A DNA stretch of 64,000 bases from NCBI GenBank assembly GCA_963704325.1, contig OY969885.1:1868293-1932292 (forward strand), given 5' to 3'. The notes under the pieces were generated by a model. That model searched no databases, was not told the origin of the DNA, and saw nothing but the letters and a program-made list of their open reading frames with translations. Below are positions 13,005-59,616 of this stretch, one piece after another (the stretch's first letter is position 1; each line of letters opens with the position of its first letter). Made by a program: the position numbers and the translations under genes. Origin of the DNA: an uncultured Chloroflexia bacterium (GTDB lineage: Bacteria > Chloroflexota > Limnocylindria > Limnocylindrales > CSP1-4).

Positions 13005-13064
13005 CGCGCGATCGTACAGCGCGAAGCGTGGCTACCATCCCCCGATGAGCGGCACGGTGTTGAG

Positions 13065-13877
13065 CTGAGCGAGTACGAGGCGGAGCTCGACGTTGCGGTC
13101 GAGGCGGCGCGCCGGGCGGGGCGACTGCAGATGGAGCGCTACGAGCGCCTCGAGCGGATCGTCCACAAGTCCGATCACGACGTCGTGACAGAAGTTGACG
13201 AGATGTCCGAGCAGCTCATCATCGCTGCGCTGCGTGACGCGTTTCCGCACGACGCCTTCCTGGCCGAAGAGGGCGGCCGGATCGACGCGGTACCGCCGGC
13301 CGGTGGCGTGGGCACTGCGCCAGGGTCGGACGGGCGAACCTGGATCATTGACCCGCTCGACGGCACGGTGAACTACGCCAACGGCATCCCGGTGTTCTGC
13401 GTGTCCGTAGGGCTGGCCGTGGGCAACAGCGCCGTGGTCGGAGTGGTCTACGACCCGGTCAGAGATGAGATGTTCACCGCGCGGGCGGGCGGCGGCGCGC
13501 GGCTCGACGGGGCGGCCATCAGCCACCCGGTCAAGGACAAGCTGTCCGATTGCGTGGTGTCACTCGCCCTGCCCAGGCGTGGCTGGGCCACGCGCGAGAC
13601 GAAGGTTCGGCGCGCGATCCGGGTGTCGCGCTCGATGGGCAGCGCCGCGCTCGCACTGACCTACCTGGCCAACGGCCGCTTCGACGGCTTCGTGCAGGCC
13701 GGCGGTCTCTCGCTGTGGGACATCTGTGCCGCCGGCCTGATCGCGACCGAGGGTGGCGCGCGACTTACAACGCTCGAAGGCGGACCGTGGTTCGATATCA
13801 GTCGCGCGAGCCGGTCGATCGGACTGGTGGGTGCCGCGCCGGCCCATCACCAGACAGTCCTGGAGCTGCTCCAATGA
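13065..13877 (+). CDS. Inositol monophosphatase family protein
   Basis: WIIDPLDGTVNY and WDICAAGLI. The first helix (ELDVAVEAARRAG) lies upstream of ATG 13131, so the start is placed at CTG 13065. Confidence 0.88.
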   Translation: MSEYEAELDVAVEAARRAGRLQMERYERLERIVHKSDHDVVTEVDEMSEQLIIAALRDAFPHDAFLAEEGGRIDAVPPAGGVGTAPGSDGRTWIIDPLDGTVNYANGIPVFCVSVGLAVGNSAVVGVVYDPVRDEMFTARAGGGARLDGAAISHPVKDKLSDCVVSLALPRRGWATRETKVRRAIRVSRSMGSAALALTYLANGRFDGFVQAGGLSLWDICAAGLIATEGGARLTTLEGGPWFDISRASRSIGLVGAAPAHHQTVLELLQ

Positions 13878-13914
13878 ACGAAGGCTGCAGCGGCCTCGCG
13901 CGGCCCACGGGAGC

Positions 13915-14778
13915 GTGAGCGAGGCTGACATTGCGTCCGCGCTGCCCAAAGGCTGGCAGCCGTACGCCAGCGTCCACGGGACGGACCACACGGTCGTCGG
14001 CAACGTCTGCGTGTGGCCCACGCTGGACTCACCGGCCGAGCTCGGCGCGCGCGAGATCGTCGCCTACCTCCCGCCGTCGTACGGGCATGAAGACGCCTCG
14101 TCACGCCGCTATCCGGTGCTCTACTTCCACGACGGACAGAACGTCTTCGACGAGCGCACCTCGTACGTCGGCAAGTGGGCCGCGGACGAGACGCTGGAGG
14201 CGCTGTCAAAGGAGGGCATTGAGGCGATCGCCGTGGCCGTGCCCAACCGGGGCGCCGAGCGCATGGACGAATACAACCCGTGGCGCGAGCCGAGCCGCTT
14301 CACGAGCGGAAGGCTGAGCGGCGGCAAGGGCGACGCCTACATGGAGTGGCTGGCGGGCACCGTCAAGCCGCTTGTTGACCGCTCGTTTCCGACGCTCACA
14401 CAGCGCGAGGCCACGGGCCTCGCCGGTTCCTCGATGGGCGGTCTGATCAGCCTTTACGGGCTGGTTGCCCAGCCGCAGGTGTTCGGCCTATCTCTTGCGA
14501 TGAGTCCCTCGATCATGTGGCACGACTACGGCATCGTCCAGCTCATCGAGCAGGGCCGCATGCCCGCCGCGCGCATCCACGTCGACATGGGTGGCCGCGA
14601 ATGGCGCGGTGGTCTGGCCGATGGCCGGCGGCTGCGCGACGCGCTGGTGGGCGCCGGGTTCGTGGAGGGCCGCGACCTCAACTACGTCGAGGAGCGTTTC
14701 GCGCCGCACAACGAGACCGCCTGGGCGCGCCGCCTGCCGGACGCGCTGCGATTTCTGCTGGCGCCCTTCCGCCGCTAG
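13915..14778 (+). CDS. Alpha/beta hydrolase (putative esterase family)
   Basis: YLPPSY, YPVLYFHDGQNVF, GSSMGG, HNETAW. Confidence 0.88.
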   Translation: MSEADIASALPKGWQPYASVHGTDHTVVGNVCVWPTLDSPAELGAREIVAYLPPSYGHEDASSRRYPVLYFHDGQNVFDERTSYVGKWAADETLEALSKEGIEAIAVAVPNRGAERMDEYNPWREPSRFTSGRLSGGKGDAYMEWLAGTVKPLVDRSFPTLTQREATGLAGSSMGGLISLYGLVAQPQVFGLSLAMSPSIMWHDYGIVQLIEQGRMPAARIHVDMGGREWRGGLADGRRLRDALVGAGFVEGRDLNYVEERFAPHNETAWARRLPDALRFLLAPFRR

Positions 14779-57700: not shown

Positions 57701-58204
57701 ATGCGCATCAGGACGCACGGCGATTTCCATGCCGGCCAGGTGCTGTGGACCGGGAAGGACGTGGTCATCATCGATTTCGAGGGCGAGCCCGGCCGGCCGC
57801 TGTCAGAGCGGCGCCACAAGCGCTCGGCGCTGTCCGACGTGGCCGGCATGCTGCGCTCGTTCCACTACGCGGCCTACGGGACGCTGCTCAATCCACACGT
57901 GGGCGGCACCGTCCGCCCGGAGGACGTGGCCCGGCTGGAGCCGTGGGCGGCGTTCTGGTATCGCTTCGTGGCGGCCACGTTCCTGCGCGCTTACCTGGAA
58001 GCGGCCAGGGGACAGCCCTTCCTGCCTGCGGACGATGCCGAGCTTGAGACGCTGCTCGAGCTGTCGATTCTGCAGAAGACGCTCTACGAGCTGGCCTACG
58101 AGCTCAACAACCGGCCGGACTGGGTGTCAATTCCTTTGCGCGGCCTGCTCGACCTTTTCGGAGTGACGGCCGACGACCCGGCGGTCGATTCCGCGCTGCC
58201 CTAG
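54792..58204 (+). pseudogene. treS: Trehalose synthase-maltokinase fusion, two frameshifts as sequenced
   Basis: [31 protein letters not shown]; Mak motifs EQSNTS, HGDFHAGQ, IIDFEGEP; shifts near 55280 and 56900. Confidence 0.9.
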
Positions 58205-58476
58205 CAGGCCCCGCCGCCCTGCCTGATCCATGACACGCCAGGCGTATCTCCTGTCCGCCGGACGGCATACGCCGCGGCCAGCCGGGGCTCAACGCGGCGA
58301 GGCGGGCCCATCACCGGACGTTCGAACCGCCGGACGGCTCATCGGACCGATGCGCCGGGCCCCGGCGAAGGTCTCTGAGGCCAAACCGGACAGGTGATAC
58401 GTCCTGCGGGTCAAACAATGTCGCCGCGCTGGTCCTTCGCCGGTACGCTGAGGCTGATGAGCGGTCATCGGACGCC

Positions 58477-59616
58477 GTGAACGTGCCCCGCCCGATGTCC
58501 GCCGCTGCGCGCTCGGCGCTGGTCACATCCGGCATTGCCGCGCTGGCGGTTGCCGCGGCACTGGCGGCCAAGTACGGGTTGCTCGTCGTGACCGGCGAGA
58601 ACGCCGGGTTCACGATCTACATCCCGGCCGTGGCACTTGCCGCCTGGTATCGAGGCATGCTCGGCGGATCGATCGCAACGGCTCTCGCTGCACTGGCCGA
58701 CCCGGTGCTCTTTACGCCGCCACTGGCCGGGCTGGCCGTGGACGTTCGCGAATACGCCGTTCGGCTGGCGGCTTACGTGACCGGCGGCATCGCCGTCTCC
58801 TACTTCTCATTCAGGCTGCGCCGAGAGCGGGGCAGTGCCCAGCGCGATGCCGCCGAGCGCCGGCGCGCCCTGGAGGACGCGGGCGAGATGCGCGAGGAGC
58901 TGGACAGGGTCGTCGCCGCGGAGCGCCGCGCGGCCGAGCTGCGCGAGGCGTTCAACAGCATCGTCTCGCACGAGCTGCGCACGCCGATCACGGCGATCTA
59001 CGGCGGCGCCAAGATCCTTGCCCGGCGCGACCGGGTGATGGAAGACTCGACGCGTCAGGAGCTGCTTGACGACCTGGAGGAGGAGGCCGACCGGCTGTAC
59101 CGGCTGGTGGAGGACCTGCTCGTGCTGTCCCGTTCGGAGCGCGGCACGGTCGAGCGGGCGGACGACCCGGTCCTCGTGCAGCGCATCGTCGAGCGCGTCG
59201 TCCGCTCGGAGGGCGCGCGCTGGCCGGCAGTCAAATTCGAGAGCGAGCTGACCGCGGCGGCCACTGCGCGCGGCGATGAGACGTACGTGGAGCAGGTGCT
59301 GCGCAACCTGCTCAGCAACGCGGCCAAGTACAGCCCCGCCGGCTCAACGGTGCGCCTCATCGTCGACGAGACGAGCGAGGGCATTCGAGTGCGCGTGCTG
59401 GACGAGGGCGCCGGAATTAATCCGGGCGAGGCGCCGCGCCTGTTCGAGCTGTACTACCGCTCACTCGCGACGTCGGCCAAGGTGGCCGGCGCAGGCATCG
59501 GGCTGTACGTCTGCCGCGCGCTCGTGGAAGCGATGGGCGGCCGGATGTGGGCCGCCCCGCGCGCACATGGCGGGTCCGAGTTCGGCTTCATCCTGGCACG
59601 CTTCGAAGAGTCCTAG
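58477..59616 (+). CDS. Membrane sensor histidine kinase (DUF4118/KdpD-like transmembrane region), orphan
   Basis: About four transmembrane helices, SHELRTP, NLLSNAAKYS, DEGAG, GIGL. Confidence 0.9.
   Translation: MNVPRPMSAAARSALVTSGIAALAVAAALAAKYGLLVVTGENAGFTIYIPAVALAAWYRGMLGGSIATALAALADPVLFTPPLAGLAVDVREYAVRLAAYVTGGIAVSYFSFRLRRERGSAQRDAAERRRALEDAGEMREELDRVVAAERRAAELREAFNSIVSHELRTPITAIYGGAKILARRDRVMEDSTRQELLDDLEEEADRLYRLVEDLLVLSRSERGTVERADDPVLVQRIVERVVRSEGARWPAVKFESELTAAATARGDETYVEQVLRNLLSNAAKYSPAGSTVRLIVDETSEGIRVRVLDEGAGINPGEAPRLFELYYRSLATSAKVAGAGIGLYVCRALVEAMGGRMWAAPRAHGGSEFGFILARFEES

Follow-up and report, generated by a model that had tools for sequence, protein, structure and literature searches.

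Introduction

Short open reading frames (ORFs) ahead of bacterial genes belong to systems of several kinds, and the present analysis concerns five of them in a stretch of 64,000 nucleotides (nt) from an uncultured soil Chloroflexota (contig OY969885.1), hereafter the window; in each, the stop codon TGA overlaps the start codon of the following gene in the four letters NTGA. In leader-peptide attenuation of the trpL type, the peptide is rich in the amino acid that is sensed and is accompanied by alternative terminator hairpins. The closest described system is that of Mycobacterium tuberculosis and M. smegmatis, where the TGA of a leaderless small ORF overlaps the RTG (ATG or GTG) start of the annotated gene (Shell et al. 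2015, PMC4633059). In that account 23 of 220 cases were coupled in this way, against 32 of 1000 random ones (about threefold), the linkage was conserved and the peptide was not, and a peptide-independent delivery of ribosomes was proposed. For M. tuberculosis, D'Halluin et al. (bioRxiv 10.1101/2022.06.01.494293) reported NUGA and URRUG overlaps between upstream ORFs (uORFs) and ORFs, some of the uORFs being leaderless; more than half of the downstream ORFs were without a canonical Shine-Dalgarno (SD) sequence, 70S reinitiation was proposed, the overlapping starts described there included no CUG, and the overlaps were tied to Rho termination through Term-seq. Termination-reinitiation at ATGA and TGATG pairs of full-length operon genes has been described by Huber et al. 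(2019, PMC6728339), and 5'-terminal upstream AUGs on SD-leadered mRNAs of Escherichia coli by Beck et al. (2016, PMC4965119).

In the preliminary description of this DNA, the five mini-ORFs were taken for a ribosome-delivery device general to the lineage. All five are present with their NTGA junctions at the coordinates claimed (Table 1), and the spacings given for two of them, TACCAT with 6 nt and TACGCT with 7 nt, are correct. The delivery mechanism fits the GH13 gene well, together with genes elsewhere in the genome and the genus; it is plausible, though unproven, at the sensor histidine kinase and doubtful at the IMPase-family gene, and it is not supported at the MarR-like gene, where the mini-ORF ATG lies inside a -10-like box, or the methyltransferase gene, where a promoter signature is lacking. 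Coupled mini-ORFs of this kind are probably rare but recurrent in the genus, with the flagged sites differing in standing as just described, and would not constitute a general route of ribosome delivery.

The genome under study, G000, is a single contig of 2.43 Mb with 68% GC; L-numbers below denote orthologue loci in relatives of the genus and G-numbers other genomes of the genus. Genes of G000 were called with our own 3-periodic Markov model (about 2180 genes), which limits every count made against predicted starts. The assemblies G002, G010, G016, G018 and G039 have few contigs, low completeness and many split genes, and are poor witnesses of reading frame.

A conserved coupled mini-ORF at the GH13 gene

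The GH13 gene carries a mini-ORF that is clearly conserved as a coupled element in the sequences of relatives, and it is the sole flagged site that appears to be under selection. Its start is firm, because the N-terminus is conserved from the first codon in distant relatives, far beyond the genus. The genus loci number 28 with G000 included; the box (C/T)AG(G/C)AT is kept in 22 of them, with an ATG or GTG 8-12 nt later, and a frame +1 uORF coupled by RTGA to the GH13 start is present in 14. These uORFs have six codons in 10 loci and seven in 2, with an ATGA or GTGA junction, and in L072 and L075 TAGAGT, 6-8 nt and ATG open an 18-codon ORF that ends in GTGA on the GH13 start. In five loci the upstream ATG is in frame and the protein gains 5-6 residues; in four of the five no RTG is left where the start used to be. 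The main ATG stands directly behind the box in 5 of the 28 loci, and an upstream RTG in frame +2 is found in none of them.

The uORF peptides are unrelated between clades (MALLHP, MTISAA, MRCRAQ, MSFPAQ, MICRPQ, VINGSSR and others). An SD core at positions -18 to -4 is present in 2 of 12 mini-ORF forms as against all seven leadered orthologues of other genera, in which GGAG stands about 9 nt before the GTG.

Coupled genes elsewhere in the genome

The arrangement recurs outside the window. At a gene for a DUF5317-MFS protein (G000 position 1194131), 13 of the 23 loci with a usable 5' end have TANNNT, 6-7 nt and an RTG that opens a frame +1 uORF with its stop on the gene start. The uORFs are 4, 5, 12, 13, 14 (five loci), 16 (two loci) and 17 (two loci) codons long, their peptides are unrelated, and an SD core occurs in 1 of the 13 coupled forms. 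If the uORF were not translated, it would be hard to see why all seven lengths should preserve the frame. The other loci comprise five that are directly leaderless, two with uORFs ending upstream, two without a signature and one garbled locus of a low-quality genome.

For a gene at 2367679, four of 19 loci, those of G000 and the three relatives nearest to it, carry a mini-ORF of 7 codons, the peptide MSLAGAA standing against MVNVSAS or MVNVSAV. The coupled uORF ahead of a subtilase gene at 982328 is confined to G000. Three further candidates were rejected: at 1421989 the main GTG itself lies 6 nt behind TACACT; at 1337501 the real start is an in-frame ATG 9 nt upstream, as in the relatives; and at 362014 the supposed box consists of the Tyr-Leu codons that end the upstream gene. 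A related layout was seen at G000 2204999-2205054, where TATACT, 9 nt and ATG open a 17-codon ORF whose TGA overlaps the ATG of a ClpP-like gene by one base (TGATG); an SD-like GGGAAGG lies within this ORF ahead of the ClpP-like gene.

Leaderless genes and genome-wide counts

The hexamer TANNNT stands 6-9 nt before 159 of 1179 predicted G000 starts that have 40 gene-free nt upstream, with 68, 40, 25 and 26 cases at gaps of 6, 7, 8 and 9 nt and about 4 at each other gap; in a wider set of starts the figure is 239 of 1986. Sites composed of TANNNT, 6-9 nt and ATG or GTG number 695, and 531 of them open ORFs of at least 60 codons, 437 in predicted gene frames and 254 exactly at predicted starts. 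The genome appears to be strongly leaderless, many of its mRNAs being predicted to start at the start codon of the gene. Leaderless genes were found in 4 of 12 Chloroflexi genomes in a 2011 survey, at a mean of 4.7% in those four (Zheng et al., PMC3160421). A literature search returned no paper on leaderless genes in Limnocylindria and, for Chloroflexota combined with leaderless genes, nothing on coupled mini-ORFs by title or abstract. In several genes the main ATG lies 9-12 nt behind the TANNNT box, which implies leaders of a few nt; the members of this second spacing class are L124, L131, L132, L313, L317, L319-L321, L323 and the window start at 27925.

Coupling is enriched among ORFs with the promoter signature. 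Of the 160 RTG ORFs with fewer than 60 codons that carry it, 9 are joined by RTGA to a predicted start, compared with 1212 of the 63991 that lack it (odds ratio (OR) 3.1, one-sided p 0.004), and for intergenic ORFs of at most 12 codons the figures are 5 of 35 and 133 of 3095 (p 0.017). Signature sites no more than 150 nt upstream of a gene on the same strand number 48; frame +1 accounts for 25 of them, frame +2 for 11 and frame 0 for 12. When upstream open frames of more than 40 codons are excluded, 102 coupled upstream RTGs are left, 5 of them with TANNNT at gaps of 6-12 nt against 2.0 expected (p 0.056), a filter that is too lossy at 68% GC. Across 921 kb of relatives' loci, 32 of 86 signature RTG ORFs of 2-25 codons end in RTGA or TTGA on an ORF of at least 150 codons, as compared with 977 of 12999 without the signature; targeted genes account for 18 of the 32, and the 14 others include six orthologues of the gene at 11394-13004. 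In G000 alone the signal is weak and amounts to a handful of genes. Strict criteria give 5-9 cases among about 2180 genes; ORFs with a direct leaderless start number at least 437, and the device cannot be called general.

Several results weigh against the view that coupled mini-ORFs are rare but recurrent. ATG mini-ORFs of 3-10 codons on an NTGA start precede 27 of the 1179 genes; dinucleotide shuffles (n = 300) of the 40 nt upstream of the start, for genes with 40 gene-free nt upstream, give 22.1 ± 4.3, and 44 of the 300 reach 27. That the five mini-ORFs go beyond chance as a set is not confirmed. With control triplets of like composition the count is 12-31, and with GTG mini-ORFs added it is 63 against 49.0 ± 6.1, a value reached by 5 of the 300 shuffles. 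The NTGA overlap carries little information, because every TGA has some NTG before it; the condition reduces to an upstream ATG in frame +1, no earlier stop, and an A after the start codon. About 27% of the predicted genes whose upstream region is free of genes have such an A, and it is not associated with an upstream frame +1 ATG (OR 1.29, p 0.31). The beginning MSG shared by two of the peptides, which the preliminary description pointed out, is unremarkable: 1.7% of predicted genes have Ser-Gly directly after the start. Under a looser definition (RTGA and an ORF of at least 150 codons), gaps of 6-9 nt give 10 of 87 against 8.9% (p 0.24), and the excess at gaps of 10-12 nt (14 of 76, p 0.0065) is partly an artefact, two of the three cases tested in relatives being false. 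One of the nine signature-coupled cases (1422006/1422021) later proved false. Nine G000 candidates tested in relatives fell into three conserved (GH13, 1194131, 2367679), three found in G000 only (IMPase, kinase, subtilase 982328) and three false (1421989, 1337501, 362014). The boxes at the GH13 gene, CAGGAT or TAGCAT, lie 8-12 nt from the uORF start, outside the mode of 6-9 nt, so that a leader of 1-5 nt is implied; the box of G000 does not read TANNNT, and its gap of 10 nt implies a leader of a few nt. Finally, gene starts come from a simple gene caller of our own, the relatives of the genus are not independent of one another, the scan of the 921 kb is biased by the choice of loci as well as by relatedness, and transcription starts and translation are all inferred from sequence.

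The IMPase and kinase sites

The features of the five sites are collected in Table 1.

Table 1. Mini-ORFs of the window, their putative promoter elements and the adjoining genes (window coordinates; peptides written without the stop).
Feature	Position	Strand	Remarks
-10-like box TACCAT	13033..13038	+	6 nt before ATG 13045
mini-ORF MSGTVLS	13045..13068	+	frame +1 to IMPase gene, CTGA junction
IMPase-family ORF from CTG 13065	13065..13877	+	Pfam Inositol_P from residue 8, HisN profile from residue 9
start region of divergent gene 11394-13004	13002..13016	-	TACGAT 13016-13011, 6 nt, GTG 13004; leaderless layout
mini-ORF MGHVISRR	20958..20984	+	GTGA junction with methyltransferase start 20981
class I SAM methyltransferase gene	20981..21835	+	N-terminus (M/V/L)-x-x-I-V-x-R-Y-D conserved from start codon
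MarR-family-like regulator gene	27197..27925	-	MarR_2 E 2.6e-4, below Pfam cut-off
mini-ORF MAYTE	27922..27939	-	ATGA junction with MarR-like start; judged a chance ORF
conserved box TACCAT	27938..27943	-	12 nt before main ATG 27925
promoter-like stretch	49288..49316	+	TGGACC 49288-49293, 17 nt, CAGGAT 49311-49316
mini-ORF MALLHP	49327..49347	+	10 nt behind box; GTGA junction with GH13 start
GH13-family gene, 1086 aa	49344..52604	+	N-terminus M-x-F-E-F-H-V-S-R conserved from first codon
-10-like box TACGCT	58444..58449	+	7 nt before ATG 58457
mini-ORF MSGHRTP	58457..58480	+	GTGA junction with kinase GTG 58477
sensor histidine kinase, DUF4118-HisKA-HATPase_c	58477..59616	+	alternative in-frame GTG 58483, ATG 58495

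At the IMPase gene the junction is CTGA, at 13065, and does not contain an RTG. The IMPase frame has no ATG, GTG or TTG ahead of ATG 13131, and a start at the latter would cut the domain, because the profile matches begin at residues 8-9. Among the 18 IMPase loci of the genus, a TACAAT or TACCAT box followed by 6-7 nt and an RTG is found in 13, and in 11 an in-frame leaderless GTG or ATG stands at the position of ATG 13045, the N-terminus being variable. In G000 this ATG is out of frame, with 35 nt (11 codons and 2 nt) to the conserved Ala-Glu-Leu codons. A boxed start is out of frame in only one other of the 18 loci, L007, where a 23-codon frame +1 uORF ends in GTGA; L008 and L010 have a 7-codon frame, VEQAASR, that ends in GTGA without a TANNNT box (read by eye). 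Coupling thus occurs at this gene within the genus. The mini-ORF of G000 is probably a genome-specific, out-of-frame derivative of an ancestral in-frame leaderless start, and the gene may be impaired.

It was also considered that restart after a -1-overlapping stop tolerates codons other than RTG, so that IMPase would be translated from CTG 13065 and an ECF T protein from GTA. This is highly improbable; if it were true, leaderless genes would, through relaxed-start reinitiation, withstand indels at their 5' ends to an unusual degree. The ECF site lies outside the window (G000 1395976-1395983): the ECF transporter S gene stops at a TAA that shares TA with a GTA codon in the frame of the T gene (GTAA), the junction has the same geometry as the mini-ORF overlap, and the T frame has no ATG, GTG or TTG for about 57 further codons.

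On the other side of the IMPase promoter region, GTG 13004 on the minus strand and ATG 13045 on the plus strand are divergent starts only 40 nt apart, with both -10-like boxes between them. Since both boxes lie inside these 40 nt (13005-13044), the upstream part of each promoter falls within the other gene. Orthologues of the gene at 11394-13004 in L002, L003, L006, L013, L015 and L017 have instead a uORF of 5-19 codons ending in RTGA or TTGA. A search of sequencing runs listed no RNA run with the locus; four DNA contig sets from one soil metagenome study cover 12800-28100 at a depth of about 1 or less and in short pieces, too thinly to bear on the sequence of 13045-13068.

The coupled form of the kinase is found in G000 alone among 13 orthologue loci, and the three closest relatives (3 of 13) have TAGGCT, 9 nt and an in-frame ATG. 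Judged by this comparison, the kinase mini-ORF appears to derive from an ancestral in-frame leaderless start through a disruption of the frame specific to G000. It is plausibly functional and lineage-specific, though unproven, and may work through its GTGA junction.

Upstream of the kinase, at 52812-58204, GlgE and TreS-Mak (a maltokinase fusion) of the trehalose-to-glucan pathway are each spread over several frames in G000. Both are single ORFs in G013 and G033, and the G000 copies are either pseudogenes or a locally error-prone stretch. Along about 75 kb of synteny with G013 there is one further possible frame break outside these two genes: about 2.6-6.5 kb ahead of the window, the match to an ORF of G013 is divided between two frames, and a gap separates its parts. 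Indel error throughout the assembly is not supported as the cause, frame breaks being scarce across the G013 synteny; an indel is possible at the N-termini of IMPase and the kinase, as is local error or decay beside the kinase.

The MarR-like and methyltransferase sites

The mini-ORFs ahead of the MarR-like gene and the methyltransferase gene are most simply read as chance ORFs. At the former, TACC(A/G)T followed by exactly 12 nt and an in-frame ATG is found in 17 of 26 genus loci, G000 included, and the other 16 all lack a coupled counterpart. The ATG of MAYTE consists of the last two letters of the TACCAT box and a G; if the box is a -10 element, transcription starts downstream of the box. 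The MarR-like gene has no NCBIfam match. By eye, the TACCAT box of its relatives L082-L102 is flanked by the inverted repeat TCGTTA...TAACGA, and at 27926-27960 (minus strand) in G000 there is a partial palindrome with CCATGG at its centre; the arrangement resembles an operator for autoregulation that overlaps the promoter.

At the methyltransferase gene, ATG 20958 follows by 15 nt the TGA (20940-20942) of an upstream GSDH-family gene, and no TANNNT lies 5-12 nt before it. The MGHVISRR form is absent from 26 other methyltransferase loci. Promoter-proximal coupled uORFs of other forms do occur at this gene, with 7 codons and ATGA in L121 and L122 and with 22 codons and TTGA in L112, and in eight relatives an in-frame or direct start follows a -10-like box, which reads TATGAT in seven and TAGCAT in one.

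Taken over the window, conservation in relatives stands for the frame and junction of the GH13 site, and it is lacking for the kinase (1 of 13 loci), for the MarR-like gene (1 of 26) and for the G000 form at the methyltransferase gene. Two of the five starts that had been claimed depend on the choice of start, CTG 13065 being non-canonical and the kinase having alternatives at GTG 58483 and ATG 58495. The conclusions do not depend on G003: without this genome the in-frame IMPase start is found in 10 of 17 loci (instead of 11 of 18), GH13 coupling in 14 of 27 (14 of 28), the MarR-like box in 16 of 25 (17 of 26) and MFS coupling in 12 of 22 (13 of 23), and G003 supplies 2 of the 32 coupled cases in relatives' loci.

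Proposed mechanism and alternative explanations

In the mechanism proposed here, the first ATG or GTG behind the -10 box would be the point at which a 70S ribosome is loaded. Where this codon is in frame, it would serve as the start of the gene. Where an indel has put it out of frame, expression would be kept only if the short frame ends on an RTG of the gene frame (RTGA), and the terminating ribosome would then restart without an SD sequence, by termination-reinitiation. Genes of the genus would in this way toggle among a direct leaderless start, an in-frame N-terminal extension and a coupled mini-ORF. Selection in this Chloroflexota genus would act on the frame and the junction and not on the peptide, programs that call start codons will set the starts of such genes wrongly or cut the genes short (IMPase and the kinase being examples), and the tiny ORFs should not be annotated as proteins.

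The five mini-ORFs could all be working delivery leaders, a general route for the SD-less GTG and CTG genes of the lineage. Every junction exists, the architecture seems real for some genes (GH13, MFS), and relatives are coupled at the methyltransferase gene (L121, L122, L112) and at IMPase (L007, L008/L010); against this stand the overlap of the MarR-like mini-ORF ATG with a conserved TACCAT box, the absence of a -10-like box at 5-12 nt from the methyltransferase mini-ORF, the unenriched raw counts, the excess of direct leaderless starts (at least 437) over coupled ones (5-9), and an IMPase junction that offers CTG only, given that no CUG figures among the overlapping starts described for M. 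tuberculosis by D'Halluin et al. This makes the proposal very unlikely. The opposite view, by which chance and shared ancestry explain everything and no mini-ORF, that of GH13 included, is translated or selected, has a little more to commend it, in that raw counts equal those of shuffles, the relatives are not independent, any frame +1 uORF stops at its first NTGA by construction, and the second codon begins with A for protein reasons (Thr or Ser in GH13, Ile in MFS). It is nevertheless distinctly unlikely, as the uORF sequences have diverged fully while start, frame and junction are kept, the seven MFS lengths are all multiples of three apart, and no frame +2 case occurs at the GH13, MFS, methyltransferase or kinase genes. 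Likewise, the loss of the old RTG in four of five GH13 loci with an in-frame upstream ATG contrasts with none of 12 where that ATG is out of frame, and the SD sequence that is absent from coupled forms is present in the seven leadered orthologues.

Two narrower explanations concern parts of the set. At IMPase and the kinase, the out-of-frame ATG may come from an indel error in the assembly or from a mutation that recently inactivated the gene; the gene would then be either an ordinary leaderless one with its start in frame or one in decay, with no reinitiation at all. In relatives the codon at the corresponding place behind the promoter is indeed an in-frame start, the 35 nt from ATG 13045 to Ala-Glu-Leu and the CTG at the IMPase junction point the same way, and GlgE and TreS-Mak beside the kinase (52.8-58.2 kb) are split in G000 and intact in G013 and G033. 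The single possible frame break outside those genes in about 75 kb of G013 synteny argues against it, as do the lack of a homopolymer within either mini-ORF and the coupled form of IMPase in another, many-contig assembly (L007), so that this explanation is possible and of some weight, though on the unlikely side. As for the conserved mini-ORFs, they might be regulatory, throttling or conditioning the main ORF or shielding the 5' end from Rho or RNases. D'Halluin et al. tie translated or overlapping uORFs to suppressed Rho-dependent termination, and the free toggling between direct and coupled forms would make the mini-ORF dispensable for expression. A regulatory role is all the same unlikely, given that no peptide is conserved, that no terminator-like hairpin is found at the three promoter-proximal sites, and that coupled forms have no SD sequence for independent initiation, which speaks for dependence rather than throttling.

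Comparison with known systems

The mini-ORFs share with attenuators of the trpL type a short ORF ahead of the gene, and differ in that their peptides are unconserved and their stop overlaps the start. The peptides are unrelated, a scan with E. coli-type consensus at the three promoter-proximal sites gave no promoter and no terminator, and Rfam gave no match at the gathering threshold in the whole window. An AUG at the 5' end ahead of the gene is common to the E. coli mRNAs of Beck et al. (2016) and the present genes; in E. coli, as described there, the genes keep a normal leader and an SD sequence. With the operon pairs of Huber et al. (2019) the junction geometry and the presumed restart are shared, and here the upstream ORF has 4-23 codons and lies at or near the 5' end of the mRNA. 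The four-nucleotide overlap is like that described by D'Halluin et al. in M. tuberculosis, and the absence of CUG among the starts given there speaks against CTG 13065.

The closest match is the RTGA-coupled leaderless small ORF of mycobacteria, with which the architecture agrees by analogy, so that the mechanism would not be new. By the features described by Shell et al. (2015), the TG of the stop is shared with an RTG at 49344, 58477 and 20981 (GTGA) and at 27925 (ATGA). TANNNT at 6-9 nt, used as a proxy for the transcript start, precedes 13045, 58457 and the MFS uORFs; it does not precede 27939 or 20958, and the GH13 site has CAGGAT at 10 nt. Coupling is conserved with a diverging peptide at GH13 (14 of 28), at the MFS gene (13 of 23) and at 2367679 (4 of 19). 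Both systems have the same RTGA sharing and a placement that is kept while the peptide diverges. An enrichment like the roughly threefold one of mycobacteria is seen here where the promoter signature is required (9 of 160 against 1212 of 63991), and is not seen in the raw ATG counts or under the looser definition. They differ in that several Chloroflexota cases lie 10-12 nt behind the -10 box and not 6-9 nt, and in phylum, Chloroflexota here and Actinomycetota there. The range of an architecture experimentally documented in mycobacteria would now extend, by its sequence features, to an uncultured soil genus, where, beyond what that mycobacterial account describes, comparison among relatives displays a genus-wide toggling of direct, in-frame-extended and coupled states.

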